Positions 12,475-59,132 of a DNA stretch of 64,000 bases are shown here, piece by piece (within the stretch, counting starts at the first letter, position 1; each line of letters starts with the position of its first letter). The stretch is from Escherichia virus TH40, in sequence record MT446411.1; one strand, given 5' to 3'. The notes under the pieces are model-generated. The model saw only the letters and a program-made list of their open reading frames with translations. It ran no database searches and had not been told where the DNA came from. A program made the position numbers and the translations under genes.

Positions 12475-12478
12475 AATG

Positions 12479-12799
12479 TCATCCTTTAAAATACATATCG
12501 GATTTTTCGACAATATCTAAAGAATTTTGCTCAGCTTGCTCTTGATAATCGCTGCCAATATAAACTTTGTCCACATGAACGACGCCATAATAAATTCTGG
12601 CACTTTCGGCTAGTGTAGAATGGTCCAGACTACGAAGTTCTTCTTTCGTTGCAAGAATGATGTCCCTCGCATATAACCGCCCAGTTGACTTTGTAGAAGC
12701 ATAATGACAATCCACACAATAAACAATATCCGCAACATGATTACCATGCAACCGGATTTCGTTAATAGATTCATCGCCAACGTTCATATAGTTAATCAT
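12479..12799 (-). CDS. hypothetical protein
   Basis: 106-aa ORF. Confidence 0.5.
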   Translation of the reverse strand: MINYMNVGDESINEIRLHGNHVADIVYCVDCHYASTKSTGRLYARDIILATKEELRSLDHSTLAESARIYYGVVHVDKVYIGSDYQEQAEQNSLDIVEKSDMYFKG

Positions 12800-20605: not shown

Positions 20606-21358
20606 TTAATTAAAAATTTCAACAACCATGGAACGTGGTACAACAGTAAATTCACCAGCATGGACAACGTTCAGGAGTTCAACATCATCTTCAATCCACT
20701 GGTCTGTTACCCAACCACAAATGGAACTGTTAAATGGGCGTTTGATTTGAACTGGTTTACACAGCAAGTCAATAGGGTCACCCAGTTCGCTAACTTCTTC
20801 CAGCAGTACAGATTCACGTGGATAAAGGATAGCTTCAAGATTGTCACCTGATTCATTGACTGCAGTAAATTCAAAGATGCTTTGGTGATTGTGGTACTTA
20901 ACTGTTTTAACGGTAAATGGAGCAAATCCAAAAATACCTTTCAGTACGCGCCAACCGGCATTCAATGCATTAGTATTATCAAAATCACCATATCCAACAA
21001 GTTGATAGGTTTTGTCAACTTTGATAGGAGTTTCTTCAACTTCTTTGAAGAGTTCAATCTCAGCTTCATAAATCATAATTTTTTCTACTTCATTAGTATC
21101 AAGGCGACGTGCATGTAGAATATATGCTTTATCAAACCAGTTACTTTTTACAAAAGTTTCAACAATAAATTCACCTTCACCTAAAGCATCAGTCAGAGTA
21201 TTATACCCAGAAACCATAGCTGCATTTTGAATAATAGGTTCAATCAGTTGATAAGTTTTGTTAATTTCAATAGTCATATTTTGTTTCTCAAGTTTTAATG
21301 GTTTAATTGGGCGAACATACATACTTACAACATCAAAGTCAATAAATTCTGGTTTCAT
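20606..21358 (-). CDS. hypothetical protein with internal duplication, paralogue of 19966-20526
   Basis: 250 aa; KTYQL... segment repeated; C-terminus GWVTDQWIEDDVELLNVVHAGEFTVVPRSMVVE. Confidence 0.55.
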   Translation of the reverse strand: MKPEFIDFDVVSMYVRPIKPLKLEKQNMTIEINKTYQLIEPIIQNAAMVSGYNTLTDALGEGEFIVETFVKSNWFDKAYILHARRLDTNEVEKIMIYEAEIELFKEVEETPIKVDKTYQLVGYGDFDNTNALNAGWRVLKGIFGFAPFTVKTVKYHNHQSIFEFTAVNESGDNLEAILYPRESVLLEEVSELGDPIDLLCKPVQIKRPFNSSICGWVTDQWIEDDVELLNVVHAGEFTVVPRSMVVEIFN

Positions 21359-28511: not shown

Positions 28512-29030
28512 TTAATAACCCCGGTCCTGACGAGCGAAGTTTTCAGCATTTTTCAGGTAATACAGTTTAAAGATTTCTTCTGCTGACAGACCAAGACCAT
28601 GGAACATGTTCAGAACAAAGTGCAGGATGTCAATCATCTCAAATTTAATTTCGAGCTGGTCTTCAGGAGACAACTCATCAATACGACGATTACGGAATTC
28701 AGCATGTTGGGCTTTCCACGGTTTCCAACAACTTGAGGCTGCTTTCTCGCCATTAGACATACCCCCGAGAGAAGTCAGAAGTTCACGGAATTCATCATCG
28801 ACATAATCTTTCTGGTTGCGAAGCCATGCAACAACATCACCTGCAGTAGCCAATTCATCTGGATGTGAGTTATATTCAGGTTTTTCGGTAGCCAGACGAA
28901 CTTGCAATGATTTCTGCATATCAAGCATAATCTGCAGCGGGTCAATACCTTTTGTAATTGCATTGTCATAAGCCAGAGCAGCTTTATCAACACCGGCAAT
29001 CAGTTGTGAACATTCATTAAAATGAGCCAT
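28512..29030 (-). CDS. 56: dCTP pyrophosphatase gp56 (MazG-like)
   Basis: Trimmed to MAHFNECS...; ...DEFRELLTSLG...EIKFE.IDILHFVLNMF...KLYYLKN.ENFARQDRGY matches T4 gp56. Confidence 0.85.
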   Translation of the reverse strand: MAHFNECSQLIAGVDKAALAYDNAITKGIDPLQIMLDMQKSLQVRLATEKPEYNSHPDELATAGDVVAWLRNQKDYVDDEFRELLTSLGGMSNGEKAASSCWKPWKAQHAEFRNRRIDELSPEDQLEIKFEMIDILHFVLNMFHGLGLSAEEIFKLYYLKNAENFARQDRGY

Positions 29031-33044: not shown

Positions 33045-34484
33045 TTAAAATTTCATTTGAGCAGCAAGGTCATCCAGGTCGCTCCTGTTGACCCTGGTTT
33101 GTCGATTCATTTCGGCCTGGCGATTCATCTCACCGGTGGCTTCTTTAACCGTAGGGCCTTGTTTAGGAGCCGAATCATCATCAACCTCATACCAGCGCTG
33201 ATTACCTTTCTTAACACCCATCTTGAATTTATTATAGTAGTTCTTATCACCATAACGAGACTTAAGCTGTTTGATTAACTGCAGCCCCATTTGAGCGAAT
33301 TCTTCGGTCTCAACAACACCCAACATAAAGTCAGCCGTGTGAGCAATACCAAAGGATTCTGCAATGTCAGCCATATCAATCTCAGCTGCAACGTTCGCGC
33401 CTCTGGTCGTCTGTGCCGCAGTCCACAGGACCACATTTTTCTCGACTGCCAGGCCACGAAGTTCTTCTGCAACCATCTTAATCAGACCGTAACTGTTTTC
33501 GGTAAACGTTTTCAGTCTTGAGCTTGCACAGATTGCCAGGTAGTCAACAATAATCACATCCGGCACAAACCCTTGCTTCAGTTTGTACTCGTTCAGTAAT
33601 GCACGGAAAGTATCCGCATGAGCACCACCAGTTGGATATTGTTTTATCTTCAGAGTCCCGAGAGTCCCGGAAGCACGCCATTTTTCCATCTTAGCTTTAT
33701 ATTCTGCCCATGATATATGACCTTCATCAATATCATCCAGAGATACATCCAGCAAGTTGGCATCAATACGTTTGGCACATACTTCTTCGGCCATTTCCAT
33801 GCTTATATAAAGAACATTATGACCAGTCTGAAGATAGTCAGCAGCTAACGAACAAAGTCCAAGGGATTTACCGACATTCGTCCCGGCCAGTAAAACGTTT
33901 TCTGTGCCATACTCAACTCCACCCTTCGTGATTTTATTCAGGATGTTAATGCGGAACGGAACCTTCTTCGATTTGTTCAGATAAGTCTGGAATCGAGCTT
34001 CGTAATCGTTTAACCAGTCATGGCCCAGGGCAGAGTCAAAACAGATAGACAATGCATCACGCATGATGTCAGGGATAGCACCGATATCCGGGATTCGTTT
34101 ATCACGTTTATCTTTAGGAAGTTCGGCATTACTCTGGATTTCGATAATCCGGGATGTGGCATTAAACATCGCAGACTTCTGTACATATTTCTCGGTTTCT
34201 TTAACCAACCATTCCTGGTCTTCTGGAGTATCAACCAGGGCTCCTAAGAGTTTCTTTGTGCCTTCATATTCGACTTCAGAAAGGTCAGAACCGTCGAGCG
34301 CGATATCAAGTGCAGTCTTAGTTGGAACTGCTTGATATTCTTTTACATGTTCGTTAATCGTATTAAAAAGGGTCTTCGCTGGACCCTTTTCAAAATATGT
34401 GCTATTCAGATATGGCCAGACTTTAACAAAATATTCCTTGTTAAAGAGTAGCTGGGATAAAATAGTTTCTACCACTTCCACCAC
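33045..34484 (-). CDS. 41: replicative DNA helicase gp41 (DnaB-like)
   Basis: 479 aa; GTNVGKSLGLCSLAADYLQ...LYISMEMAEEVCAKRIDAN; GTG start. Confidence 0.95.
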   Translation of the reverse strand: MVEVVETILSQLLFNKEYFVKVWPYLNSTYFEKGPAKTLFNTINEHVKEYQAVPTKTALDIALDGSDLSEVEYEGTKKLLGALVDTPEDQEWLVKETEKYVQKSAMFNATSRIIEIQSNAELPKDKRDKRIPDIGAIPDIMRDALSICFDSALGHDWLNDYEARFQTYLNKSKKVPFRINILNKITKGGVEYGTENVLLAGTNVGKSLGLCSLAADYLQTGHNVLYISMEMAEEVCAKRIDANLLDVSLDDIDEGHISWAEYKAKMEKWRASGTLGTLKIKQYPTGGAHADTFRALLNEYKLKQGFVPDVIIVDYLAICASSRLKTFTENSYGLIKMVAEELRGLAVEKNVVLWTAAQTTRGANVAAEIDMADIAESFGIAHTADFMLGVVETEEFAQMGLQLIKQLKSRYGDKNYYNKFKMGVKKGNQRWYEVDDDSAPKQGPTVKEATGEMNRQAEMNRQTRVNRSDLDDLAAQMKF

Positions 34485-34813
34485 CTCTTTTTCATTTTAA
34501 TCTTATCAATTTCATCTTGTATTTGCATTGTAACACACTTTTCTACATGCACTGCAAGCTCCGCTTTGCGGTCTTCAGAAGGGGTGCCGAAATCAACTGA
34601 AACTTTTCCAGATGGTTCAATTTTAATTCCGGTTACGTACACAATGTGATTGGACCCATCAGGGAGTGATAACAGAATTTCCTGCCGTACAGTTCCCATG
34701 GATTGCCGGATAATCTCCAAACTTTTTTCGTAGTAAGGTACAGAAGGAGCCTTAGCTCCCTCCGCATCTTTCTCGAAATTATCTAAATCAGATAAATCGA
34801 TATCATTCATCAA
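34469..34813 (-). CDS. 40: gp40-position protein
   Basis: 114-aa ORF between 41 and uvsX as in T4. Confidence 0.45.
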   Translation of the reverse strand: MMNDIDLSDLDNFEKDAEGAKAPSVPYYEKSLEIIRQSMGTVRQEILLSLPDGSNHIVYVTGIKIEPSGKVSVDFGTPSEDRKAELAVHVEKCVTMQIQDEIDKIKMKKRWWKW

Positions 34814-35981
34814 GGTCTTCCATCATATCTAAATCGTTTTCGATATCTGCCGCAGACGGTTTTGTCTTACCTTCAGGAGCAGAGTATTTTTCAACCTTGG
34901 AGGCAATAAGCGCATCAACTTCGGCGTCAACAACAGCATTGCTATCGATTGCACCCAGCTGGTAATGTCGTTTGATTGCATCACGGAAAGGTTCGTGCTT
35001 GAACAACGGACCCCAGAATTCGGTACAGTTAGTATCTTTTGCGCGCCATGATTTTTCTTCGCGGACCATTTCACCGGTCTCAACATCAAGATATTCACGG
35101 TTATACCAACCAACTTTCGGTTTCACCACAAATCCGATTTCCATTGCCATATCAAGCAGGCCAGAATACGGGTCAATACCACCATCGAATTTTACATCAA
35201 TGAAGAATTTACTTTTCTCTTTGACCATACGAGATTTTTCGGCGTTCAGAACAAATTGGAAACCTTCAAGTTCTTTACCGGTTTCTTTAATCTGGCGTTT
35301 GCCGATAATGAATACGGTGTCCGCAGAATACATAACACCTGTACCACCGGTCATAACGGTTTTGCTGTACATCTCAATCGTCTCGATTGTATGGTTAACC
35401 GCGACACAAGGAATATCCTTGATACTAAAATACGGGGTAACAATACGGAACAGAGATTTCAAGGATTTAGCACGAGTCATATCGCCAACGACTTTTTCGT
35501 TCATCGCATCTTCTGTTTCTTTTTTAGACGCCATGTTACCGATTGAGTCAATAAAGATAATGACTTTTTCACCGCGCTCAATTGCTTCAAGCTGGTTAAC
35601 CATATCAACTTTCAATTGTTCAACCGACTGGATTGGTGTATGGATAACACGCTCCGGGTCTACTTTCATTGCACGAAGATAAGCTTCGGTGATACCAAAT
35701 TCTGAATCATAGAACAAACAGATTGCGTCGGGGTATTTGTTCATATATGCAGAGACCATCGTTAAACCCATATTGGATTTAAAGTGTTTTGACGGACCAG
35801 CAAAAATAGTCAAACCTGACTGCATACCACCATCTAGTGCACCGCTGATTGCAATGTTCAGCATCGGGATTTTTGTACGAACTACATCTTTATCATTAAA
35901 AAACTTGGACTTAGTAAGAGTCGCAGTCATTTTGGATGTAGAAGCTTTAATCAAACGGGATTTCAAATCTGCAATAGACAT
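34803..35981 (-). CDS. uvsX: UvsX recombinase (RecA-like)
   Basis: 392 aa; RecA fold core; position. Confidence 0.9.
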   Translation of the reverse strand: MSIADLKSRLIKASTSKMTATLTKSKFFNDKDVVRTKIPMLNIAISGALDGGMQSGLTIFAGPSKHFKSNMGLTMVSAYMNKYPDAICLFYDSEFGITEAYLRAMKVDPERVIHTPIQSVEQLKVDMVNQLEAIERGEKVIIFIDSIGNMASKKETEDAMNEKVVGDMTRAKSLKSLFRIVTPYFSIKDIPCVAVNHTIETIEMYSKTVMTGGTGVMYSADTVFIIGKRQIKETGKELEGFQFVLNAEKSRMVKEKSKFFIDVKFDGGIDPYSGLLDMAMEIGFVVKPKVGWYNREYLDVETGEMVREEKSWRAKDTNCTEFWGPLFKHEPFRDAIKRHYQLGAIDSNAVVDAEVDALIASKVEKYSAPEGKTKPSAADIENDLDMMEDLDE

Positions 35982-36034
35982 TCATTTTTTCCATAGGCAC
36001 CATTATATTTTTCTCACAGGTTTAAGATAGGATA

Positions 36035-36060
36035 ATTATATCACTGTATTTTTAGAGCAA
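36035..36060 (-). promoter_or_regulatory. MotA-type middle promoter (TTGCTCTA box, 12 bp, TATAAT) upstream of uvsX
   Basis: rc ttgctctaaaaatacagtgaTATAAT. Confidence 0.45.
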
Positions 36061-36189
36061 TTAACGATTGAATCCACGATTAATTGCACGTTCAACAATC
36101 TTCCGGGTCTGACGTTTGTCCCACCAGTACATAAAACCAATACCAAATGCAGACAACAGCCACAGACTAATCAATAGCATACCAATCAT
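36061..36189 (-). CDS. small membrane protein (42 aa)
   Basis: MIGMLLISLWLLSAFGIGFMYWWDKRQ... Confidence 0.4.
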   Translation of the reverse strand: MIGMLLISLWLLSAFGIGFMYWWDKRQTRKIVERAINRGFNR

Positions 36190-36216
36190 AATATTTTTCT
36201 CGCAGTTCGGAGTAAT

Positions 36217-36324
36217 TTAGTAAACGTTTCCGCGTTTCCAGTTTTCTTCAGCCAAATGCTTATTACGCTTTTCTAATAGCAGCAAACCAATTACTGTTCC
36301 AACAATCAGAAGTAATAATAGCAT
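36217..36324 (-). CDS. small membrane protein (35 aa)
   Basis: MLLLLLIVGTVIGLLLLEKRNKHLAEENW...; start overlaps upstream stop. Confidence 0.4.
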   Translation of the reverse strand: MLLLLLIVGTVIGLLLLEKRNKHLAEENWKRGNVY

Positions 36325-36827
36325 CAGTTAATACCTTGGCGTGCTTTCTCTTTAGCTATACATTTATTAATATAGCTCAGACGGTTTTGAGCAGAACGCT
36401 GATACATATCGCGATACTCATTGGCTTTTGGAGAACCCGTCTCTGCTGCCTGATAAGCTTCCGCGCGCATGATGTTTATCTGCATATTGATGTATGACAT
36501 GCAGACCTGTGAAATCTGGTTAACAGTATCCAGGTCATTTTGGCGCTTGGTTTCTGCTTCCAGTTTAGCAATGATTTCGTCATGCTTCGCAGCTTGTTCG
36601 CGTTTGTACTCAATTTCACGTTGAGCATATTTCGCGCAGTTATTTCCACATTGATTGTTGTCGCGTTTGTAGATAAGTCCAGTACCACCTTTGAAATCAA
36701 AGGAACCATTATGCACCTGACGGTCTGCAGCAATTCGCGCTTTACCAATCTCATTGGCATTAACAACATCGCCCTGGTAAGCACAACCAGATAGCAGCAT
36801 AACAGCTGCGATAGCTAACTTTTTCAT
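36324..36827 (-). CDS. putative lipoprotein at the T4 position of beta-gt/42
   Basis: Trimmed to MKKLAIAAVMLLSGC...; lipobox LSGC; coiled-coil-like C-terminus. Confidence 0.55.
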   Translation of the reverse strand: MKKLAIAAVMLLSGCAYQGDVVNANEIGKARIAADRQVHNGSFDFKGGTGLIYKRDNNQCGNNCAKYAQREIEYKREQAAKHDEIIAKLEAETKRQNDLDTVNQISQVCMSYINMQINIMRAEAYQAAETGSPKANEYRDMYQRSAQNRLSYINKCIAKEKARQGIN

Positions 36828-36977
36828 TGTATTTTCCTCAATTAAAACATTCATAACGGGCTTGGAGTCCCAAAAATACCCAACCCAAAATTAAAGTTGG
36901 AATCATATGCGGAGTCATTATTGCCCAATAGATTGACATACTAAAAAATGCAATCAGTACAATAATTGTAATTATCT

Positions 36978-37220
36978 TCATTTGGTTTCCTTGATGATAA
37001 TTACATGTGCATTTGATTTACGCTCAGCAACGAGTGCCCAGATAAATGCAATAAACCATCCGACCATTGTCCAACCTAACAGGAGGTTAACAAAGAAGAT
37101 TCCGCAATTACTTTTGGTTCCTCGCAGTAGCGCGATAATCCACGGCAGAAAATATGCCAGTGCAGCCAGGAAGAAAGAACCAGCACCAAGAACAACAGTA
37201 CCTGCAATTAATGTTTCCAT
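36978..37220 (-). CDS. imm: possible Imm immunity protein (two-TM)
   Basis: 80 aa, two hydrophobic helices, immediately upstream of 43 as in T4; sequence not verified. Confidence 0.45.
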   Translation of the reverse strand: METLIAGTVVLGAGSFFLAALAYFLPWIIALLRGTKSNCGIFFVNLLLGWTMVGWFIAFIWALVAERKSNAHVIIIKETK

Positions 37221-37260
37221 TTTAATATCCTTAATTTAATCATCAGTAGTTGATGGAGTA

Positions 37261-37289
37261 ATCATACGGCAATCCTTTGCCGTTGTAAA
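37261..37289 (-). promoter_or_regulatory. early promoter cassette (-35 TTTACA, -10 TATGAT) with catcagtagttgatgg leader
   Basis: Upstream of imm; stem CGGCAA/TTGCCG. Confidence 0.4.
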
Positions 37290-37292
37290 CAC

Positions 37293-40007
37293 TTAAAAAT
37301 CAAACATATCAAAAAGAGATGCTTTTTTCTCGTAATCAACCTTAGCTGCTTCAGAGAACCCTGTTAACGGTTTGACAAAAGTCTTCTGGAACAGTGTGTT
37401 GTAGTCCATCCACTGCAGAACCTGGTCACGAATTTCAATCGGGAGTTCAATCCCTGATGGCCATGCAATCACGGTTTCGCCAAACGGGTTACCAACTTTA
37501 AGAGGAAGCACATACACCTTTTCCCCTTCCATGATTTGTGGAACAGTCTTCAGCCCTTTAGTTGCACGCATATATGCAAGCACACCTTTGATATGAGCCG
37601 GGCACTTAAATCCAGGGAAACCACCCTCATTATATTTCTGGATGTTGTTAACTGATGATACACCCGCGATGGTCATGTAGTTAAGCTCATTAAATTCCTT
37701 ATTGAATTCCTTGAAGTATGTCTGCAGAGATTCTTCACCTTCTTGCAGCATGCGACGGATACATTCTTTCAGAGCTTTCTGGCATGCTTTTGGGGTGCTC
37801 GACTTTTGAGTTTCCAGACCCATGATTTTAAGTTTCGGAACAGCATATCGTGTGCCTTCCATATCGTACACATTCAGAGCATAACGCTTCTTCGCTGTCC
37901 AGAATCCACCAACACCTTTAGAACCCAGCGGAGGGCATGCAATCGCTTCACGGTCCATAAACATAAGGTGCTGTTTGTTGTTCATGTATTCAGCCAGCTC
38001 ACGGAAAGCTTTATCGATTGCCGGTTCCAGACGGTCTTTCGCAAACTTGTCCATGAAGTCAACCAGGTGGTTTGTATCGCGGAATTTAGATTCGCCACCA
38101 ACCTTTTTAATCAGGTTATCGCACTGAATATAAATGGAGTCAGTATCGCCATAGAATACATATGTTTCACCACTTGTACCACAAACACTATCAAAATATT
38201 CGTTAACTTTACGCTCAATCCACTGCAATGCAAGTTGACCAAAAGATGTAATTGCGGTTGCATTTCGCAGGTCAAAATAACGGAACCAGATATTACCCAG
38301 AGCACCATAACAACTGTTGATAAGCAGTTTACGGTTAATCTGTGCGGTCATGCCTGCAACTTCTTCCATCTGCGCTTTGTACAACATACCATTCAGAACT
38401 GTTTGATTCAGACCATGCAAGGCTGTTTTCATATTGTCATCAAAGTCATAACGATAATCAACTTCAGGCTCGGTTGTACCAACTCCTGGATTACGCAGAG
38501 CTTCCTTAATCAGTTCACCATTACGTTGAGCCGCAAGCATATAACCTTTGTGCTCTTTACGCTGATTAAACACCTTGGTGACTTCTGTCGGAATAATACC
38601 TGCAACATCTTTAAAATACATCATACCGTTTGGAGCACAACTAAATGTATCAGATGGACGGTCAGCAGTTCCTGCGATGTATTCGTACATTGGCGCTGGT
38701 GCAAATGAGCCGGCAATCGTTTCTGGACTGATGTTAATCTGTCGGATGATGCTCGGATACAGAGATGTTAAGTCACAGCTCATAACGTATTTGTATGCGT
38801 TCGGAATCGGTTCCTTAACAAATGCACCAGGGAACGATTGGCGAACATGCGATTTGGTTTCCGGAATGACTTTGTTTTGAGTCTTCAGGCTGTTAAAGAT
38901 AATCGCATCCCAAGTTTTGATTGGGCTGAATACAGACTGAATCTGCATTTTTGCGTAATAACCCATTGACTGGCTAAGGTTAATAAACTGTCGTTTACGG
39001 TCAATCTGTACAACACGATAAACATCGATGATGTTATAAGAAATATACCGTTGGTGATTTGATTCACGCAGTTTAGAAATCGGACCATCATACGGGAGTT
39101 TACCAACACCCAGCTCAGATTCTGCAACATAATCCAACGAATAAGATGGTTGGTTTGTGAAGCTGAACTTTTTGTACAGGTCCAGATAATCCAGAACAGA
39201 GATACCCAGAATCTGAATGATTTCTTGTTCTTCACCGAAACCGTTGTTAATGACCTTAACTTTTGTACGACGATGTGGACTCAGTCGTTTTGCCGTAGCT
39301 TCACCAAATACATTTTTAAGGCGGTTGTAGATATATGGAATATCAAACTTCTCGATGTTCCAACCAGTTAACATAACCGGAGTTTTCTCGTTCCAGAATA
39401 CCAAATACTGCTGGAGCATTTCTTCTTCTGAATCGAAAGCCATATAAACAATTTTTTCCAGGATTTCTTCAGGGACTTCATCGCCGCCATCTTCTTGCAG
39501 CTTAGCAGCAATATCGATAGACCATTGCTCCACAGTGGCGTATGGTGAGCTCAAAAGGTCAAAGACATAGAATTTATCGTCTATCGAATCATAGTGCGTC
39601 AGGGCATCAATAGGGTGACGTGCTTCAGACGGCTCAGGGAACCCATCAGGAGATGTCACCTCGATATCGAAGTTAGCCACACGGATTTTACTTGAATCGT
39701 ATTTGATTTCGTGTGGGTAACGGTCGGACAAGTACGCGAGTTTAAAGTCATCCATACCCATAGCTTCGAGACCCATGTCATTCATTCGCTTCATCCACTG
39801 GGATGCATCACGCATGGAATCGAATTCTTTTTTCACACAACCTTTATTATAGATGTCTGTATACTTTGCAGCCTGGTCTTCGCGGGCATGCATAAACAGG
39901 CATGGAGCATAGGGGATTTCACGAACACGTTCATGACCATTCTTGTCAATGTATCGTTCGAGTAGGTTGTCACCGATTTGTTCGATAGTTAAATAAAATT
40001 CTTGCAT
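37293..40007 (-). CDS. 43: DNA polymerase gp43 (family B)
   Basis: 904 aa; exonuclease motifs and YGDTDS. Confidence 0.95.
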   Translation of the reverse strand: MQEFYLTIEQIGDNLLERYIDKNGHERVREIPYAPCLFMHAREDQAAKYTDIYNKGCVKKEFDSMRDASQWMKRMNDMGLEAMGMDDFKLAYLSDRYPHEIKYDSSKIRVANFDIEVTSPDGFPEPSEARHPIDALTHYDSIDDKFYVFDLLSSPYATVEQWSIDIAAKLQEDGGDEVPEEILEKIVYMAFDSEEEMLQQYLVFWNEKTPVMLTGWNIEKFDIPYIYNRLKNVFGEATAKRLSPHRRTKVKVINNGFGEEQEIIQILGISVLDYLDLYKKFSFTNQPSYSLDYVAESELGVGKLPYDGPISKLRESNHQRYISYNIIDVYRVVQIDRKRQFINLSQSMGYYAKMQIQSVFSPIKTWDAIIFNSLKTQNKVIPETKSHVRQSFPGAFVKEPIPNAYKYVMSCDLTSLYPSIIRQINISPETIAGSFAPAPMYEYIAGTADRPSDTFSCAPNGMMYFKDVAGIIPTEVTKVFNQRKEHKGYMLAAQRNGELIKEALRNPGVGTTEPEVDYRYDFDDNMKTALHGLNQTVLNGMLYKAQMEEVAGMTAQINRKLLINSCYGALGNIWFRYFDLRNATAITSFGQLALQWIERKVNEYFDSVCGTSGETYVFYGDTDSIYIQCDNLIKKVGGESKFRDTNHLVDFMDKFAKDRLEPAIDKAFRELAEYMNNKQHLMFMDREAIACPPLGSKGVGGFWTAKKRYALNVYDMEGTRYAVPKLKIMGLETQKSSTPKACQKALKECIRRMLQEGEESLQTYFKEFNKEFNELNYMTIAGVSSVNNIQKYNEGGFPGFKCPAHIKGVLAYMRATKGLKTVPQIMEGEKVYVLPLKVGNPFGETVIAWPSGIELPIEIRDQVLQWMDYNTLFQKTFVKPLTGFSEAAKVDYEKKASLFDMFDF

Positions 40008-40072
40008 TTGGTTTCCTTTATAGTCGAGTGATTGACTTTTGTTTTATGACTTGATGTTATTATACTACAAAA

Positions 40073-40086
40073 GGGACCGAAGTCCC
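40073..40086 (-). terminator. rho-independent terminator GGGAC-CGAA-GTCCC
   Basis: Hairpin plus TTTTG; followed by TATAAT before gene 43. Confidence 0.6.
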
Positions 40087-40092
40087 TTTGCT

Positions 40093-40320
40093 TTAAATTT
40101 CTATTGTACGTCGTTCGATGGTTGGATTACCCTTTTCATCTTTAGTTCTAACCATAGCCTGGAAGACTCTCTGTCCAGGATGCAATAATTTCTTGAGTTC
40201 CTTTTGAAATTCTATTTGAAGTTCTTCGGAAAGGTCAAAAATGGTTTGAGTTGGGGAAAGTCCATATATTTCTTTAAGGCGTTCGCATGTTTCAATTTCA
40301 TACTTCATATCAATTACCAA
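40093..40320 (-). CDS. hypothetical protein
   Basis: 75-aa ORF between regA and 43. Confidence 0.5.
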   Translation of the reverse strand: MVIDMKYEIETCERLKEIYGLSPTQTIFDLSEELQIEFQKELKKLLHPGQRVFQAMVRTKDEKGNPTIERRTIEI

Positions 40321-40678
40321 TTGTATATTTGGCTACGAGCTTCCAGTCGTCTTTTTGTTTAAAGGAGATAACACGGAAGTTGTTTGTTACTGCGAACAAT
40401 TCATTACGCTCTTCTTCTTTGATAGTGATTAAGCCCCAGTCTTCGAGCAGTTGAGTGATGGAATCACGGCGCTGATAGTCTTCACCATCAATATCCACCT
40501 GGCGACCATCCATACGCAACATTTCTTTGAAGTGAACAATATAATAACGGCCTTGCTTCTGGAGGATGTGGCAGCTCTGGTACAGCACACGGTCTTTATT
40601 ATTTGCGATGCCCATACGGGTCAGAGTTTCTTTAACTTTCAGGAAGTCTTCAGGTTGCTTTAATGTAATTTCAATCAT
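40310..40678 (-). CDS. regA: translational repressor RegA
   Basis: 122 aa; MIEITLKQPEDFLKVKETLTRMGIANNKD.VLYQSCHILQK near-identical to T4 RegA. Confidence 0.9.
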   Translation of the reverse strand: MIEITLKQPEDFLKVKETLTRMGIANNKDRVLYQSCHILQKQGRYYIVHFKEMLRMDGRQVDIDGEDYQRRDSITQLLEDWGLITIKEEERNELFAVTNNFRVISFKQKDDWKLVAKYTIGN

Positions 40679-40679
40679 T

Positions 40680-41258
40680 TTACCATTCCAATATTTGTTT
40701 TTTAATTTCTTTTTGTTCTTTCACATTACTGGTAACTGTCTTTAAGAATTCATCCGTTACCAGACCTTTTGTCTTTTTCAAAACATCTTTAAGACTACCT
40801 TTGACTTTCAATGTTTCCATATACATCAAAGCATCATCAGCATTAATTGTATAATATTTCATTAAAAGCTTTAACACAAGCTGGACGCTGACTACATCCG
40901 GTTCAGCCTTTGCCCATTTACCATAACGTTTGCCTTGTGGAACCGCATGCAGCAAATAATTATAATGCTGCTGGTCTGTTAACCCGGCACCGATTAAGTT
41001 CATCACATTGACCTGCATAATGCAATCGACATGTTGGCTCAATGCGTTTTCTAACCAGAATTTATTGTAGTTTTCCGATTGAATCAGGTTTCGTGGTTTT
41101 TTACTAACGGTTATATCATTAAGAATCGCGAACAATTCATTTTCTGCTTTCTCTTTGTATGAATCGGACAATTCCTGAATTTTGTTAAAGTCGCGTGATT
41201 TCCACGCAACCTCATGTTCGTTTAATTGAACGTCATCATCAAAGAGACTTACAGCCAT
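40680..41258 (-). CDS. 62: clamp loader small subunit gp62
   Basis: 192 aa; position between regA and 44. Confidence 0.75.
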   Translation of the reverse strand: MAVSLFDDDVQLNEHEVAWKSRDFNKIQELSDSYKEKAENELFAILNDITVSKKPRNLIQSENYNKFWLENALSQHVDCIMQVNVMNLIGAGLTDQQHYNYLLHAVPQGKRYGKWAKAEPDVVSVQLVLKLLMKYYTINADDALMYMETLKVKGSLKDVLKKTKGLVTDEFLKTVTSNVKEQKEIKKQILEW

Positions 41259-45784: not shown

Positions 45785-46800
45785 GGTTGCACCTCAAGAT
45801 ATAATTTGTTAGCCAATGCTTTGAGAGCTTTTGATTCTTTCTCATTGGCATCAGGCAATGCATCGATATATTCTGCCATCATATCAGTTAAGCGTTTTAT
45901 GTCTAACTCTTCTTCGGAGTCAGTCGTATCAACACTGTTATCAACCTTATTGACAACACGCAATTCATGCACACGCTTTTCTAATTCGGATTCGAACTTG
46001 GTCAGGTCTTTATCGACTTTTTCTACAATAACACGGACTGATAAGTCTTTGAAGTCGTCGTAGTTAATAGTTTCGTTTGGATAGAAAATCTTCCGATGCC
46101 AGGTGGTTTCATTCGGAATAAATTTCATCTCTTCGGTTTCGGTATCAAATTCCCAGAACCCACGCGGGTCGTTCTCATCACCCGCTGTTAATGTCCATGG
46201 TGTCCCGATGTACTTAACGTTCGCAGCTTCTGAAATGGTATGGAAGTGCCCAGACCAAACTTGTTTGTACTTCTTAAGGAAATCAGGCTCAAGCCCGTGG
46301 GATTTCAGTCCTTTATAGAAATAAAACCCGGTTAATTCCCAGTGACCGATGCAATATTCAGCCCCAGAAGTTTTGATGTGTTGATGAATGTCAGTCGCGT
46401 TCTCGTCACACATCCATGGAATCATATCAATCTGGCAACCGTCAAAATCAACAGTCGTTGGCTTATCGTAGATTTTAACATGGTCATACTTATTCAGGAG
46501 CTCAGTGATAGCATTAGGATGAATCTTATTCTTCAGATTCATGTCATGGTTCCCGACTATCGTGTGCATAGTAATTCCTGCTTCACGAAGGAGTTCCATA
46601 ATCTCACGGCTGAATTCCATCGTCTTATGCGTTACGGCCTTACGGACGTCAAAAATATCACCATACTGAATCCAGACTTTAATTCCATTCGCTTTGGAAT
46701 ATGCAATCGCCTGTAAAATACCATCACGTTGAATGTTTTGAGCCCATGGGTCGTCAGCTTTGACCCCTAAGTGCCAATCACCTAAATTTAAAATTTTCAT
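45781..46800 (-). CDS. 47: recombination endonuclease subunit gp47 (SbcD/Mre11-like)
   Basis: Trimmed to MKILNLGDWHLG...; phosphoesterase motifs GDIFD, GNHD. Confidence 0.95.
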   Translation of the reverse strand: MKILNLGDWHLGVKADDPWAQNIQRDGILQAIAYSKANGIKVWIQYGDIFDVRKAVTHKTMEFSREIMELLREAGITMHTIVGNHDMNLKNKIHPNAITELLNKYDHVKIYDKPTTVDFDGCQIDMIPWMCDENATDIHQHIKTSGAEYCIGHWELTGFYFYKGLKSHGLEPDFLKKYKQVWSGHFHTISEAANVKYIGTPWTLTAGDENDPRGFWEFDTETEEMKFIPNETTWHRKIFYPNETINYDDFKDLSVRVIVEKVDKDLTKFESELEKRVHELRVVNKVDNSVDTTDSEEELDIKRLTDMMAEYIDALPDANEKESKALKALANKLYLEVQP

Positions 46801-46940
46801 AAGCCAAGCACCGTTATCGCAATGCAAAATAAAATTACTGAAATGAACCCGTCAGGAGTAGAAAAGAATCCTATCCAACAAGCTCTTGTGAATGTGTAGA
46901 ATGCCATGAATAGCACGACATATCCTAAAAATAATTCCAT
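46797..46940 (-). CDS. small membrane protein (47 aa)
   Basis: MELFLGYVVLFMAFYTF...; stop overlaps gp47 ATG. Confidence 0.4.
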   Translation of the reverse strand: MELFLGYVVLFMAFYTFTRACWIGFFSTPDGFISVILFCIAITVLGL

Positions 46941-46990
46941 ATACTCTCCTCAGTTGGTTCATTTTATCATCCCGAATATAAAGCAAAAAA

Positions 46991-47007
46991 GGAAGCACTA
47001 GGCTTCC
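46991..47007 (-). terminator. rho-independent terminator GGAAGC-loop-GCTTCC
   Basis: Hairpin followed by TTTTTTG on - strand. Confidence 0.6.
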
Positions 47008-47252
47008 TTTCCAATTAATACACCGTACAGAGGTTCGTGAGAAGACCTGAACTTGATAGGCTTATAGGTAATAGTACCTTCATTTTCTGCTTTAATACGA
47101 GCAGCTTCAAATTGAAGTATCATCTCATTTTTGTCAGATTTAATCTTATCAAAATCCGTCGAATTCGTCATTCATATAGCCTCTTAAACTTTTTCGTATT
47201 CGTCATTCATAAGTTTAAAAATCCGGGTGTTCGTCTTCAAAGCAACCGATAT

Positions 47253-47453
47253 TCATCGCTGCCACCACTTCTTAAGTTGATGTGAATCCACCCAAACCTT
47301 GGCCACGGGCTCAATCTGAAAAATACCATCAGAATACTGCCCAACCATTTTATATTCGGTTTCGGTCTGCTTGATACAGATATTACCATATGAGCGAAGT
47401 CTGAAAGCGGCTCCAACAAGAAGCCGTTTAAAAGGTTTATTTACTAATGCCAT
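47253..47453 (-). CDS. hypothetical protein
   Basis: 66-aa ORF. Confidence 0.4.
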   Translation of the reverse strand: MALVNKPFKRLLVGAAFRLRSYGNICIKQTETEYKMVGQYSDGIFQIEPVAKVWVDSHQLKKWWQR

Positions 47454-47748
47454 TTACGATTTCCCAAATTTGTTTGCGAGTAGTTTCCCACATCAACTTA
47501 ATCAGGTCTTCCGTAACTGGTTGACGGTAAATTCCACGCAGTTTAACTAAAGCATATTTGTATGCTTCAAAATTGTTTTCCAGCACTGCGCCTTGAGCAT
47601 GTTTATTCAGACGTGCAATTTCACGAGCATTCTTTTTCAGAATCTTCGCTGCTTGACTGGTTGCTTCGAGCGCGTTCGCTTCTTCGAGACGTTCCTGTGC
47701 TTCTTCAATCTGCTTATCGGTCAGTTGAGAAATATCTGGAGCTTGCAT
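47437..47748 (-). CDS. hypothetical protein
   Basis: 103-aa ORF. Confidence 0.5.
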   Translation of the reverse strand: MQAPDISQLTDKQIEEAQERLEEANALEATSQAAKILKKNAREIARLNKHAQGAVLENNFEAYKYALVKLRGIYRQPVTEDLIKLMWETTRKQIWEIVNGISK

Positions 47749-47749
47749 A

Positions 47750-48001
47750 TTAATCCTTGGGAGTTAACTCAATTGTAAAATATAGATTAGCATTATCTAC
47801 ATGATAACGGTAATCAACGTTATTATCCGGTGAAGTAAATTCCAGATTCCGGACGTTTAAAGGGTCGATATCAATTGGAAGACCTTTTATGTCTCGCAGA
47901 TAAAGTTTAATGAAATATGGGAGCGCAGTAAAGTCTTCCTCGATTTTATCTAAAAAATCGGTAATATCAAATTGATGTTCCATATAAAAAATCCAAATCA
48001 C
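47750..48001 (-). CDS. hypothetical protein
   Basis: 83-aa ORF. Confidence 0.45.
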
Positions 48002-51809: not shown

Positions 51810-52280
51810 TTAATCATGTTTCCACACCCCATCGGTATTTGACCAAAGTCGCTGATTATCTGACCCTCGCCACAGTTTTTTGGTCGGAAGATTTTTATCA
51901 TACTTCCCATCAATAATAACATCAACATATTTAAGCATTTCTAGTTGTTTAATATCTTCAAACTTATATCCTGTCCACATCCAAATACTTTTATTTGGAT
52001 AAAGATTTTTAACAGTTTGAACCACAGAGTGAATAACCTCTCGGTTATCGGGATAGAGAGGGTCTCCTCCAGTTATAGTTAATCCTTCTATATAATCATT
52101 ATTCAAACATTCAATTAATTGTTCTAGTGTTTCACCAGTGAATGGAACTCCATTTCTAGCATTCCATGTTGATTTATTATAACACCCTTCGCATTTATGC
52201 AAACAACCTGTGACGAAAAGAACGACCCTGCATCCAGGGCCATTAATAAAATCACAAGGATAAATTCTATCATAATTCAT
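51810..52280 (-). CDS. nrdG: anaerobic ribonucleotide reductase activase NrdG (radical SAM)
   Basis: 156 aa; CLHKCEGC cluster motif. Confidence 0.9.
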   Translation of the reverse strand: MNYDRIYPCDFINGPGCRVVLFVTGCLHKCEGCYNKSTWNARNGVPFTGETLEQLIECLNNDYIEGLTITGGDPLYPDNREVIHSVVQTVKNLYPNKSIWMWTGYKFEDIKQLEMLKYVDVIIDGKYDKNLPTKKLWRGSDNQRLWSNTDGVWKHD

Positions 52281-54094
52281 TGGTGTTTAACCCTATGCAT
52301 GATTTCTTTATTTTTGCCGAGATTAAATCCGCGTTCGTTCGGATTTCCCAAATAACCGCAAGTTCTTCTTATTGTGTTCATCTTTTTAGGGTCAGTTTCT
52401 CCACAAATAGAACAAACAAATCCGTTTTCAGTAGGAGTCATTTCATGGGTACTTCCACACGTAAAACATTTATCTACTGGCATGTTAACACCAAAATAAT
52501 CTAAATGTTGCGCAGCATAATCCCATACAGCCTCAAGACCTTTTAAGTTATTTTTCATATCAGGAAGTTCAACATAAGAAATGTGACCACCTGTCGCAAT
52601 GAAATGATATGGAGCTTCGCGGGAAATCTTTTCAAACGGGGTGATATTTTCTTCTACTGAAACATGGAAACTATTAGTGTACCAGCCTTTATCAGTAACA
52701 TCCTTTACACTTCCATATTTTTCAGTATCAAGTTTACAGAAGCGATAACAAAGGTTTTCAGCAGGTGTAGAATACAAACTAAAAGCAAAACCGGTTCTTT
52801 CAGTCCACTGCTTAAGACGAGCATTCATTTTAGTTAAAATTTCTTGCCCAATATCACGACCGGCAAGAATATTCAATTCGTGAATACCAATGTATCCCAA
52901 AGACACTGAACTTCTACCGTTTTTAAATAACTCAATTATATCATCATCAGGTTTAAGACGAACCCCGAATGCACCTTCTTGGTAAAGAATAGGAGCAACA
53001 GTCGCTTTAACTCCTTTTAAAGAACTAATTCTACACATCAAAGCTTCAAAACACAAATCCATTCGCTCATTGAACAATTCGATAAATTTCTGTTCATTGA
53101 ACTGTGTTCCAATATAAGAATCTAACGCAATGCGAGGAAGATTCAGTGTTACAACGCCAAGATTATTACGTCCATCAAGAATTTCATTGCCAGTCGAATC
53201 TTTCCATACGCTCAAGAAACTACGACATCCCATTGGAGAAACAGGAATAGATGAGCCGGTGATAGCTTTATTGTTCTTAGCTGAAATAATATCAGGATAC
53301 ATTCTTTTGCTTGCACACTCTAGAGCAAGCTGCTTAATATCATAGTTCGGGTCGTCTTTATAAAGATTAACACCTTCTTCAACGAACATAACAAGTTTAG
53401 GGAAAATAGGAGTTATCCCATCGCGACCAAGACCTTTGATACGATTTTTCAGAATTGCTTTCTGAATCATTCGTTCAGTCCAGTCAGTTCCCGTGCCAAA
53501 CGTAATTGTCACAAAAGGCGTTTGCCCATTTGAACTAAAGAGCGTATTTACTTCATATTCATAAGCTTGGAATGCATCGTATACGTCTTTTTCTGTTTTA
53601 GATTGGGCATAATTCAATGCATCAGTGATTTGCCATTTTTCTGCATCTTCAATATGTTTTGCGTATGTACGTTTAACATAAGGAGAAAATACTTTGTCTA
53701 CATTAGCAAAAGTCGTTCCACCATATTGGTGAGAAGCAACCTGTGCAGTAATTTGTGCCATAATTGCAGTAGCAACACCAATTGATTTAGGAGTTTCAAT
53801 CTGCGCATTACCGAGCTTAAACCCGTTCTCAAGCATTCCTTTTAAATCTACTAAACAGCAATTAGTAAATGGAAGAGCAGGGGAATAATCAATATCATGG
53901 AAATGAATAATTCCACTTTCATGTGCTTTCATAATAAAAGACGCGACCATATTTTTGGCAATGTGTTTAGATACAATACCAGCCATAAGGTCCCGTTGAG
54001 TTGGAAAAACACGAGAATCTTTATTAGCATTCTCGTTTAAAAGGTCTTTATTAGTTTTATGAATCAATCCTTCAATTTCGTTTTCAATTGTCAT
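52277..54094 (-). CDS. nrdD: anaerobic ribonucleoside-triphosphate reductase NrdD, uninterrupted
   Basis: 605 aa; C-terminal glycyl-radical motif RRTCGYLG; Cys zinc site. Confidence 0.95.
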   Translation of the reverse strand: MTIENEIEGLIHKTNKDLLNENANKDSRVFPTQRDLMAGIVSKHIAKNMVASFIMKAHESGIIHFHDIDYSPALPFTNCCLVDLKGMLENGFKLGNAQIETPKSIGVATAIMAQITAQVASHQYGGTTFANVDKVFSPYVKRTYAKHIEDAEKWQITDALNYAQSKTEKDVYDAFQAYEYEVNTLFSSNGQTPFVTITFGTGTDWTERMIQKAILKNRIKGLGRDGITPIFPKLVMFVEEGVNLYKDDPNYDIKQLALECASKRMYPDIISAKNNKAITGSSIPVSPMGCRSFLSVWKDSTGNEILDGRNNLGVVTLNLPRIALDSYIGTQFNEQKFIELFNERMDLCFEALMCRISSLKGVKATVAPILYQEGAFGVRLKPDDDIIELFKNGRSSVSLGYIGIHELNILAGRDIGQEILTKMNARLKQWTERTGFAFSLYSTPAENLCYRFCKLDTEKYGSVKDVTDKGWYTNSFHVSVEENITPFEKISREAPYHFIATGGHISYVELPDMKNNLKGLEAVWDYAAQHLDYFGVNMPVDKCFTCGSTHEMTPTENGFVCSICGETDPKKMNTIRRTCGYLGNPNERGFNLGKNKEIMHRVKHQ

Positions 54095-56682: not shown

Positions 56683-56878
56683 ATCGGTGTTTACAATGTC
56701 TGCATTTATATTGAAGCGGAGAGCTACGCCAATAAGTCAATTGGACCTGTTCAGTTCCGCATTCAGGGCAGTTCGGAACGTTTTTAGAAGCTTGTTCACG
56801 TCGTTCGACAATTTTAATAATCGCATTCCAATCAGGAATCCCGTATTCTGCGATATCTTCTCTTAAACGTTGTTTCAT
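56654..56878 (-). CDS. zinc-ribbon protein
   Basis: 74 aa; CPECG...CRHC. Confidence 0.45.
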
Positions 56879-57867: not shown

Positions 57868-57925
57868 AGTGTTCTCCTCATAAAGTAGGAATTCATTATA
57901 CTCCCTCCATCCTTGGAAGTAAACA

Positions 57926-58882: not shown

Positions 58883-59048
58883 TCATAATTGCCAAAGCAA
58901 ACCAAAGCAGAGGCCATACTAGTGTAATGAATACTGCATCATAGCTTGATTCAATTTCGATTGGATTCCAATCACCCGATTTATGAATGATAATGGTCGT
59001 CATGAATCCTAGCACAAAGTAAAGGAGAATAAAACCTACAATTTCCAT
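58833..59048 (-). CDS. small membrane protein
   Basis: 71 aa, two hydrophobic helices. Confidence 0.45.
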   Translation of the reverse strand: MEIVGFILLYFVLGFMTTIIIHKSGDWNPIEIESSYDAVFITLVWPLLWFALAIMIVFWPIAKFYEKLFGL

Positions 59049-59049
59049 A

Positions 59050-59130
59050 TTAACCTACAATATTTGAGAATATAAGCCACAGAATACCTGTGGCAACGAA
59101 TACATAACCAAGAACGGCGAGCCATTCCAT
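59050..59130 (-). CDS. tiny hydrophobic peptide (26 aa)
   Basis: MEWLAVLGYVFVATGILWLIFSNIVG. Confidence 0.25.
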   Translation of the reverse strand: MEWLAVLGYVFVATGILWLIFSNIVG

Positions 59131-59132
59131 AA

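Follow-up and report, generated by a model that had tools for sequence, protein, structure and literature searches.

Genes for cytosine modification are confirmed to be missing from the window, the whole 64,000-nt stretch of Escherichia virus TH40 (MT446411.1) that was analysed, and their absence holds across the genus Gaprivervirus. This is an observation of gene content, so chance is not at issue. The absence is already in print, and what our analysis adds is a single residue: the sole gene of the genus with a thymidylate synthase (TS) fold, the orthologue of T4 td, has Asp where E. coli ThyA has Asn177, the residue that selects uracil. From these sequence comparisons we lean, on balance, towards a model in which one Asn-to-Asp change converted td, so that the phage makes 5-methyl-dCMP and has 5-methylcytosine (5mC) DNA like that of XP12.

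The window belongs to Gaprivervirus, T4-like coliphages of the Tevenvirinae, with 93–98% nucleotide identity to RZ, VR7, SP18, MN01 and DK-13 (94–98% over 7 kb at 93–100% coverage; 93–94% over 25 kb). MN01 and DK-13 are its nearest genomes, and no database genome exceeds ~94% identity across 25 kb. The window covers 64 kb of a ~170-kb genome, with td among the genes in the ~106 kb beyond it. Whole-genome statements about the genus rest on the complete relatives RZ and VR7; td was seen in relatives, and Asp177 is expected in TH40 from its closest relatives, including MN01 and DK-13.

The interval between uvsX and gene 43 (35982–37292) is bounded below by the uvsX recombinase gene (34803–35981, minus strand; 392 aa, 72% identical to JS98 UvsX, annotated as a RecA-like recombinase in RZ) and above by the gene 43 DNA polymerase (37293–40007, minus strand; 904 aa, 78% identical to JS98 gp43). 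Between them, also on the minus strand, lie two membrane ORFs with one transmembrane segment each, of 42 aa (36061–36189; an annotated CDS in RZ, no PHROG match) and 35 aa (36217–36324; no family match), followed by a lipoprotein-like ORF of 176 aa with the lipobox LLSGC (36324–36854; 167 aa from the ATG at 36827), a 47-aa membrane ORF (36838–36981) and imm, encoding a superinfection immunity protein (36978–37220; PF14373, E = 9.5e-18; phrog_1039; 67% identical to JS98 Imm). The lipoprotein-like ORF is a homologue of JS98 orf43 (tblastn, 53% identity, E = 1.8e-44; phrog_1754, E = 5.7e-47) and of VR7ORF049c, and a Pfam search gave it no match. The 47-aa ORF matches phrog_3610 (E = 7.6e-27), JS98 orf44 (tblastn, E = 8.9e-11) and RB69 orf054c. 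It is annotated '42.1' in VR7, a small neighbour of gene 42 that is kept where gene 42 itself is gone. An earlier note on this DNA had listed only two tiny membrane ORFs, a 167-aa lipoprotein and an imm-like gene here; the latter two stand, but the tiny ORFs number three. A sigma-70-like promoter (TTTACA-17-TATGAT, 37289–37261) lies directly upstream of imm and is the only site returned by Rfam, promoter and terminator scans of the interval. The ORF content of the interval is the same as in RZ and VR7, and gene order is colinear with the type members VR7, SP18 and RZ.

The second T4 site, between genes 47 and 55, holds five short ORFs on the minus strand (46797–48001), each matched by its T4 protein in tblastn: 47.1 (46797–46940, E = 4e-21), a-gt.2 (46998–47171, E = 4e-17), a-gt.3 (47253–47453, E = 4e-13), a-gt.4 (47437–47748, E = 6e-22) and a-gt.5 (47750–48001, E = 3e-12). 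T4 a-gt itself is missing. The earlier count of three short ORFs (at 46801–47966) was thus too low, but the absence of alpha-gt was correctly seen.

Homology searches of the window gave only noise for T4 gp42 (tblastn, best E = 0.27) and beta-gt (best E = 0.64), no match at E ≤1 for alpha-gt, and none at E ≤0.1 for the JS98 glycosyltransferase, TS homologue, kinase, phosphatase and nucleotidyltransferase. A TS-family profile HMM recovered its controls, T4 gp42 and JS98 orf39, and gave no match in the window (best E = 0.32). These tblastn and profile searches bear out the claim that dCMP hydroxymethylase and glucosyltransferase genes are missing from both T4 positions. With the controls working, they also uphold the statement that the window holds no ~250-aa TS-fold protein or ~400-aa glycosyltransferase, for the TS fold and for glycosyltransferases of the T4 and RB69 types. 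The suggestion that the genes sit elsewhere fails for the relatives: tblastn of the complete RZ and VR7 genomes found no gp42, alpha-gt, beta-gt or RB69/JS98-type cluster, and there the TS profile finds only td. That TH40 alone, in contrast to its relatives, carries gene 42, a glycosyltransferase or both in the ~106 kb beyond the window seems to us extremely unlikely; T4-like genomes are mosaic, and no database genome is closer than the identity given above, but these genes are missing from RZ and VR7, both complete, two surveys agree for the genus (PMC8056088, PMC12115623), and each of the two T4 sites in the window has the deletion typical of Gaprivervirus.

Several other candidates were considered and rejected. 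A 250-aa ORF of about the size of gp42 (20606–21358) is MotB.1-like, and unannotated proteins of 330, 318 and 282 aa at 56875–59981, examined as hidden glycosyltransferases, are by sequence homologues of T4 nrdC.4, nrdC.5 (DUF7235) and nrdC.6, with single-sequence AlphaFold models among them at low pLDDT (40 and 47). An ORF comparison revealed no genus-specific ORF fitting a post-replicative DNA methyltransferase, and in the window nothing lies at the site that T4 dam takes up between genes 56 and 61. VR7ORF147c, annotated as 'similar to cytidine/deoxycytidylate deaminase', has no Pfam match and no zinc motif and was set aside as a second deaminase.

Comparison with JS98, of the sister genus Dhakavirus, indicates how the gap arose. 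In JS98, orf38–42 sit between uvsX and orf43-orf44-imm. The functions of this cluster were assigned in RB69 as glycosyltransferase, TS homologue, kinase, phosphatase and nucleotidyltransferase/kinase, and its product is arabinosyl-5-hydroxycytosine (PMC13326640). The window retains orf43, orf44 and imm without orf38–42, and in place of the 4.2-kb modification cluster of JS98 there are ~340 bp taken up by the 42- and 35-aa ORFs. Because Dhakavirus carries the RB69-type cluster at exactly the same site, the sequence comparison identifies a loss in Gaprivervirus, predicted to comprise the uvsX–imm cassette (gene 42 and beta-gt in T4; the arabinosyl-5-hydroxycytosine cluster in RB69 and JS98) as well as alpha-gt between 47 and 55.

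Despite this loss, the apparatus that excludes ordinary cytosine has been kept. The clear gp56 dCTPase recognized earlier at 28512–29030 (minus strand) is indeed a dCTPase/dUTPase gene (PF08761 above cutoff; phrog_173, E = 5e-45; 84% identical to JS98 gp56). The window also encodes a DenB-like endonuclease IV (11881–12513, minus strand; phrog_1360, E = 2.4e-78; 43% identical to JS98 DenB) and the nucleoid-disruption protein Ndd (9438–9887, minus strand; PF06591, E = 9.6e-69). T4 DenB is a dC-specific single-stranded DNA nuclease, and by analogy the DenB-like gene is a second putative marker in the window, after gp56, for DNA without plain cytosine. The relatives carry Alc, DenA, the gp1 dNMP kinase, the cd deaminase and frd, with RZ matches to PF17527 (Alc), PF21448 (gp1) and PF00383 (cd). 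A pattern in keeping with the 5mC model, noticed post hoc, is the low identity of DenB, gp1 and Alc, at the 5th–9th percentile of 152 RZ–JS98 orthologue pairs, though this may simply mark fast-evolving genes.

This combination has been described as a puzzle: no known enzyme for base synthesis is present in Gaprivervirus, although dCTPase, DenB, DenA and Alc persist, and an unknown base was proposed in 2021 and again in 2025 (PMC8056088, PMC12115623). For VR7, supplementary Fig. S4 of PMC6326788 gives cytosines as modified and non-glycosylated by restriction analysis. The same figure legend calls VR7 only 'modified', whereas T4 147 is 'hydroxymethylated', T4 beta-glucosyltransferase having served as the test for 5-hydroxymethylcytosine (hmC). 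The literature searched contained no enzyme assay or nucleoside analysis for any Gaprivervirus.

The td gene offers a candidate solution. The motif GLPFDIGSY, with Asp177, occurs in td of RZ, VR7, VR20, VR25, VR26, SP18, UPEC01, DK-13, P479, MN01 and P8, and Asp177 is also present in P0073, a metagenomic sister lineage; among the best 120 matches, Asn177 is found in every other T4-like td (114 of 114). The codon is GAC in Gaprivervirus and GAT in the sister lineage, and Asp has thus been kept across a synonymous change. The enzyme looks intact from its sequence, with the catalytic Cys and the folate site retained: the alignment shows conservation of R21, E58, W80, Y94, R126/R127, C146, H147, Q165–S167, D169, H207, Y209 and the C-terminus, PF00303 spans residues 1–266 of 266 (E = 1.6e-90), and a match to 1TIS, the structure of T4 td, is colinear (E = 2e-127). 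It is an orthologue of T4 td, 65–70% identical to genuine td enzymes, and RZ and JS98 td share 69% identity vs 84% for JS98 and T4. Clade-specific substitutions, among them T47V, L52Y and I55V, accompany Asp177. According to PMC8670742, which cites Hardy & Nalivaika 1992 and Liu & Santi 1992, replacing Asn177 by Asp shifts TS from dUMP to dCMP and yields 5mdCMP. When phage TS homologues with Asp at this position were co-expressed with T4 gp1, 5mdC was found for 5 of 7, plus the Xp12 control; T4 gp1 supports 5mdC incorporation, and phages with 5mC obtain thymidine by deaminating 5mdC nucleotides (bioRxiv 10.1101/2024.12.05.627091). The earlier proposal of a different modification route gains support from this switch, seen in relatives, in the only TS-fold enzyme of the genus.

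In the pathway we propose, gp56 would turn dCTP into dCMP, the substrate that Asp177 td would methylate to 5-methyl-dCMP, with Frd recycling the dihydrofolate released. The gp1 kinase and host NDP kinase would raise 5-methyl-dCMP to 5-methyl-dCTP for insertion by gp43, giving virion DNA with sugar-free 5-methylcytosine in place of cytosine. For dTMP there would be two possible sources, used singly or together: Cd, by deaminating 5-methyl-dC nucleotides, and host ThyA. The cd and gp1 of Gaprivervirus are candidates for feeding the dT and 5mdCTP pools, and PaMx74, a 5mC phage, has a frd-cd-thyA set with Asp at position 177.

Some considerations count against 5mC. In the homologues demonstrated to be dCMP-specific, His147 too has given way to another residue (Thr in T4 gp42, Pro in PaMx74 ThyA), but the alignment shows it kept in Gaprivervirus td. 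This objection is tempered by other enzymes: of the 7 with Asp177 among the 150 closest TS cluster representatives, at least 5 keep His147, and so does an unrelated phage contig (L015) in which the TS adjoins a deaminase. Furthermore, sugar-free 5mC DNA is expected to be cut by McrBC, and this expected sensitivity counts against 5mC given that RZ was isolated on MG1655 and that a search for a homologue of T4 Arn, which might have explained McrBC evasion, found none detectable.

The McrBC tension would vanish if the base were neither 5mC nor 5hmC. In the published reading, a cytosine derivative of another nature is made by an enzyme unrecognizable as a TS homologue, with Asp177 td unrelated or responsible for part of the route; the two surveys proposed such an unknown protein or base (PMC8056088, PMC12115623), the supplement of PMC6326788 calls VR7 cytosines 'modified' without identifying them chemically, and many small ORFs have no assigned function. 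We nonetheless give this reading a minor, if appreciable, chance. In a comparison of all RZ and window ORFs with JS98, the RZ ORFs of at least 60 aa without a JS98 homologue comprise homing endonucleases, NrdD/NrdG, internal-head-type and tail-needle-knob-like proteins and small ORFs, with no genus-specific enzyme candidate among them; nrdC.4, nrdC.5 and nrdC.6 are common to T4; and the Asp177 change would be left without explanation. There is a small chance that Asp177 td acts with an unrecognized partner, or that an enzyme of a new kind acts, to make an undescribed derivative that escapes McrBC with no Arn homologue detectable. It is improbable, in our view, that Asp177 td uses dCMP but hydrates the methylene intermediate, so that the DNA contains non-glucosylated hmC. 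Asp at this position is common to T4 gp42, published predictions for Asp-type homologues cover both 5hmdC and 5mdC (bioRxiv 10.1101/2024.12.05.627091), and the BREX data of PMC6326788 give VR7 the same sensitivity as T4 147, which has hmC only. On the other hand, td closely resembles genuine td enzymes with an intact folate site and C-terminus, TS enzymes given the N-to-D change in the laboratory act as methylases by the account in PMC8670742, and the BREX paper's legend, with its beta-glucosyltransferase test, distinguishes the two phages. The case for a putative methyl rather than hydroxymethyl group comes down to this canonical TS scaffold and the wording of one supplementary figure legend.

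Ordinary cytosine, with gp56 chiefly a dUTPase, like that of RB49-type phages, is very improbable. It would suit the lack of a hydroxymethylase and glycosyltransferase and the occurrence of gp56 homologues in the cytosine-containing Krischvirus and Pseudotevenvirus (PMC12115623, Table 4). Against it, and against the idea in the earlier note that the phage may use unmodified cytosine, stand the modified cytosines of VR7 in the restriction analysis, the dCTPase and DenB-like genes of the window, and Alc, DenA and gp1 in the relatives; DenB and Alc, which act against dC-DNA in T4, are missing from the cytosine-containing genera, and Asp177 td would still make 5mdCMP.

Both surveys held that Gaprivervirus is unable to replicate without a non-canonical base and that no enzyme making it is known, and for this reason their authors give no therapy advice on the genus (PMC8056088, PMC12115623). 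A single altered residue in a protein that is everywhere called 'thymidylate synthase' offers a concrete and cheaply testable answer. If 5mC is the base, these phages would be the first T-even-type coliphages with 5mC DNA and would repeat in nature what protein engineers achieved with TS N177D, a classic result; loss of one cassette and change of one codon would have sufficed to move the entire T4 machinery for cytosine exclusion to another base. Homology-based 'td' annotation would then mislead predictions of phage DNA chemistry, on which depend expectations of how such DNA is sequenced and cloned and how sensitive it is to restriction, BREX, CRISPR and McrBC.

Finally, our results place Gaprivervirus among known systems. 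It shares gp56, gp1, cd, frd, DenA, DenB, Alc, Ndd and the gene order around both sites with the glucosyl-hydroxymethylcytosine system of T4, but lacks gene 42, beta-gt, alpha-gt and Arn, and the DNA of its member VR7 is non-glycosylated. At the uvsX–imm site used by RB69 (Mosigvirus) and JS98 (Dhakavirus), it retains the neighbouring orf43, orf44 and imm, but all five cluster genes are missing, tblastn with orf38–42 finding no match in the window, RZ or VR7. Like the RB49-type phages with unmodified cytosine (Krischvirus, Pseudotevenvirus), Gaprivervirus has a gp56 homologue without gene 42 or glucosyltransferases; unlike them, it has DenB and Alc (PMC12115623). The Xanthomonas phage XP12 and the Pseudomonas phage PaMx74, in which a TS-homologue dCMP methylase leads to full substitution of C by 5-methylcytosine, with dT made by deamination, resemble it in having a single TS-fold enzyme with Asp177, a dCMP-deaminase-family enzyme and a dihydrofolate reductase, and their modification is sugar-free and made at the nucleotide level, as predicted for Gaprivervirus. 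However, Gaprivervirus td is only 32% identical to PaMx74 ThyA, td and cd lie ~12 kb apart rather than adjacent, and the T4-like chassis includes dCTPase, DenB, DenA, Alc and Ndd, 5mC being there a prediction from genes. Because td is the T4 td orthologue (65–70%) with His147 kept, it looks like an independent, recent conversion. The closest parallels are the laboratory dCMP methylases E. coli ThyA N177D and L. casei TS N229D, in which the same single substitution was made in an otherwise canonical TS with His147 retained; in Gaprivervirus, by contrast, the change is natural, fixed across a whole phage genus, kept over a synonymous codon change and accompanied by further substitutions.

Our searches bear out an absence that an earlier note had reported from the sequence, namely that gene 42 and the glucosyltransferase genes are missing from the window. 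As tblastn queries, T4 gp42, beta-gt and alpha-gt gave only noise within the window and the five JS98/RB69 cluster genes had no match there, and a TS-family profile HMM found nothing in the window, with the positive controls T4 gp42 and JS98 orf39 recovered. The interval bounded by uvsX (34803-35981) and gene 43 (37293-40007) carries, all on the minus strand, imm (36978-37220; PF14373, E 9.5e-18), a 47-aa membrane ORF (36838-36981; phrog_3610, JS98 orf44, annotated '42.1' in VR7), a lipoprotein-like ORF (36324-36854; lipobox LLSGC, 167 aa when started at the ATG at 36827, 53% identity to JS98 orf43) and, on the uvsX side of the latter, a pair of tiny membrane ORFs (35 and 42 aa; ORF list, RZ annotation). 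A promoter scan placed a minus-strand sigma-70-like promoter between gene 43 and imm; an Rfam scan of the interval returned nothing. The lipoprotein and imm had been read correctly, but three tiny ORFs are present rather than two. Likewise, alpha-gt is indeed missing between genes 47 and 55 of the window, as is mobB, but the interval holds five short ORFs rather than three, homologues of T4 47.1, a-gt.2, a-gt.3, a-gt.4 and a-gt.5. The dCTPase gp56 lies at 28512-29030, as claimed. A 250-aa minus-strand ORF at 20606-21358, similar in size to gp42, was rejected as a TS-fold protein; it matches phrog_2333 (MotB.1-like), and its C-terminus (residues 210-246) resembles that of MotB (PF17613).

The absence extends across the genus. 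In megablast searches with positions 34000-41000, 32 phage records covered 80% or more of the query, and among the best matches were Yersinia phage P8 (98.4% identity), Escherichia phage vB_EcoM_RZ (96.9% identity, 100% coverage), VR20, SP18 and VR7; over positions 1-25000 the nearest genomes were MN01, DK-13 and PSD2001 (93-94% identity). RZ and VR7 belong to the genus Gaprivervirus (Straboviridae; Tevenvirinae), and the identity values therefore make TH40 (window G+C ~40%) a member of this genus, yet identical to no record in the collection. Run on the complete RZ (170,318 bp) and VR7 (169,285 bp) genomes, these protein queries and profiles found no gp42, alpha-gt, beta-gt or RB69/JS98 cluster in either, and td, annotated as thymidylate synthase (TS), was the only TS-fold ORF in each. 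The suggestion that the genes sit elsewhere is thus unsupported for these relatives. In JS98, a member of the sister genus Dhakavirus, orf38-42 (glycosyltransferase, TS homologue, kinase, phosphatase and nucleotidyltransferase/kinase) sit between uvsX and orf43-orf44-imm and correspond to the RB69 arabinosyl-5-hydroxycytosine genes (PMC13326640). Because these five genes are extra at the same place, where Gaprivervirus has ~340 bp with two tiny ORFs versus 4.2 kb in JS98, Gaprivervirus represents a clean cassette loss.

The missing modification genes are a true oddity of the genus, already published. Nikulin and Zimin (2021) reported that Gaprivervirus lacks a known non-canonical-base enzyme yet has DenB, Alc, DenA and dCTPase, and suggested 'an unknown protein' (PMC8056088). 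Using restriction analysis with and without T4 beta-glucosyltransferase, Gordeeva et al. found T4 and VR5 to be glycosylated and T4 147 hydroxymethylated, whereas VR7 'has modified cytosines' that are non-glycosylated; BREX blocks VR7 fully (PMC6326788). Our literature search found no paper tying any Gaprivervirus to a specific base. Since VR7 cytosines are modified, the proposal of unmodified cytosine is also unsupported, and a different modification route is the only one of the three original readings that our results support, through the Asp177 found in td of relatives.

The motif GLPFNIASY of E. coli ThyA and JS98 td reads GLPFDIGSY in RZ td, with Asp at the Asn177 position (E. coli ThyA numbering), which corresponds to Asp179 of T4 gp42. 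This td lies outside the window, and Asp177 was read in relatives. Direct checks found Asp in RZ, VR7, VR20, VR25, VR26, SP18, UPEC01, DK-13, pEC-M719-6WT.2, P479, MN01 and P8, and td of the Gaprivervirus type (at least 85% identity by tblastn) occurs in 32 records from 26 distinct phages, the next-best record being at 70%. Of the 120 top database homologues, only Gaprivervirus clusters (the 73-member SP18 cluster and a P8-type at 86% identity) and one metagenomic sister have Asp, with Asn in 114 of 114 other T4-like td sequences. In IMG/VR, a DNA pattern for DVFLGLPFDI matched 4 contigs (VR20, VR25, VR26 and one unrelated 54-kb contig), versus at least 120 matches for its Asn version. Asp occurs in 7 of the 150 closest 50%-identity cluster representatives, at least 5 of these with His147. 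Gaprivervirus td keeps His147, in contrast to Thr in T4 gp42 and Pro in PaMx74 ThyA, and all other catalytic and folate-site residues; its match to PF00303 covers the full length, and it aligns colinearly with T4 td in the crystal structure 1TIS.

The metagenomic sister, P0073 (292 aa; 3953-4831, plus strand, of L011, a Logan SRR24146912 contig), is 67-69% identical to Gaprivervirus td, has several Gaprivervirus-specific substitutions in common with it and lies in a T4-like frd.2-frd.1-frd-td context. Its Asp codon is GAT, versus GAC in Gaprivervirus. As this second T4-like lineage also has Asp177, the clade of Asp-type td extends beyond the named genus. The unrelated 54-kb viral contig (L015, IMG/VR UViG_3300023503_000001; 1683-3177, minus strand) encodes a canonical-looking TS (269 aa) with Asp177 and His147 near a dCMP-deaminase-like ORF (144 aa), an arrangement as reported for 5-methylcytosine (5mC) phages. 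VR7ORF147c (VR7 65136-65561; 15136-15561, minus strand, of the VR7 section L141) is annotated as similar to cytidine/deoxycytidylate deaminase; it has neither a Pfam match nor a zinc-binding motif, and the annotation looks spurious. Two paralogues in RZ share its C-terminal VQSYASNFRK motif.

Residue 177 MECHANISTICALLY is significant in that Asn177-to-Asp turns canonical TS from dUMP to dCMP, with 5mdCMP as product, a classic finding reviewed in the eLife MetaGPA paper (PMC8670742, with reference to Hardy & Nalivaika 1992, Liu & Santi 1992 and Graves 1992). More generally, cytosine-using members of the TS family as a rule have Asp and uracil-using members Asn (PMC5175136). A 2024 preprint predicted the product from residue 177 and, with TS homologues co-expressed with T4 gp1, termed a promiscuous dNMP kinase, confirmed 5-methyl-deoxycytidine (5mdC) for 5 of 7 phage TS homologues and Xp12 (10.1101/2024.12.05.627091). 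The best explanation, towards which we lean, is that N177D has re-tooled td into a putative dCMP methylase; a methyl rather than hydroxymethyl product is inferred.

The main rival, that an unrecognised enzyme makes an unknown base, would fit the 'unknown protein' already suggested for the genus, but we consider it rather unlikely. When every window and RZ ORF of ≥60 aa was compared with JS98, the Gaprivervirus-only ORFs were homing endonucleases, NrdD/NrdG, proteins of the internal-head type, one protein with collagen and tail-needle-knob parts, and small ORFs that do not obviously encode enzymes. In support of the methylase reading, td identity is lower between RZ and JS98 (69%) than between JS98 and T4 (84%). 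In T4, DenB, gp1 and Alc sense or handle cytosine modification. At 43% (DenB), 47% (gp1 dNMP kinase) and 49% (Alc), they rank between the 5th and 9th percentiles among 152 RZ-JS98 orthologue pairs (median 76%), a range that excludes gp56 (85%) and NrdA (89%); this low conservation, which like that of td was spotted only in hindsight, suggests that these proteins have co-adapted to another base. Two points weigh against the methylase reading: td keeps His147, and sugar-free 5mC or 5hmC DNA should be an McrBC target. No homologue of the T4 McrBC inhibitor Arn was detectable in the window, RZ, VR7 or JS98, although asiA.1-like, arn.2, arn.3 and arn.4 are present (window 4323-4636; RZ, VR7 and JS98 genomes). 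As RZ grows on MG1655, some other anti-McrBC function would be needed on K-12 hosts.

Several other genes differ among these genomes. The only plus-strand gene within a long run of minus-strand early genes (61270-62016; RZ counterpart 59199-59945) occupies the JS98 nrdC.10 position. Its 248-aa product combines a collagen-like G-x-y stretch at residues 56-77 with a tail-needle-knob domain of the Sf6 type (PF16532, E 2.6e-32; phrog_1030, E 8.5e-67), which is unusual in T4-like myoviruses; in VR7, an ORF with collagen repeats lies at another place (VR7ORF196w). A 208-aa homing endonuclease (63245-63871, minus strand; phrog_655, E 8e-31), not at that position in RZ or JS98, is one of several mobile endonuclease differences among Gaprivervirus genomes. 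The anaerobic ribonucleotide reductase genes nrdG (156 aa) and nrdD (605 aa) (51810-54094, minus strand) are also in RZ and are absent from JS98 and from the VR7 55.8-49 junction.

If td is a dCMP methylase, gp56 would convert dCTP to dCMP, td would convert dCMP to 5mdCMP, gp1 and host NDK would raise this through 5mdCDP to 5mdCTP, and gp43 would put 5mdCTP into DNA. The VR7 data agree with this route, being modified, sugar-free and not labelled hydroxymethylated. Host ThyA, Cd activity on 5mdC nucleotides, or both might supply dTMP; the preprint argues that dT of 5mC phages comes from deaminated 5mdC nucleotides, so that a second TS is unneeded (10.1101/2024.12.05.627091). The gene absence as given is ordinary, but through it a question posed by two papers can be put to a specific and cheap test. 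In the 5mC phage PaMx74, frd, cd and thyA lie side by side and ThyA has Asp at 177; in Gaprivervirus, td with Asp177 adjoins frd, and cd, gp1 and gp56 are also present. With td as a dCMP methylase, Gaprivervirus would be a new member, on a T4 chassis, of a known class, the 5mC-substituted phages.
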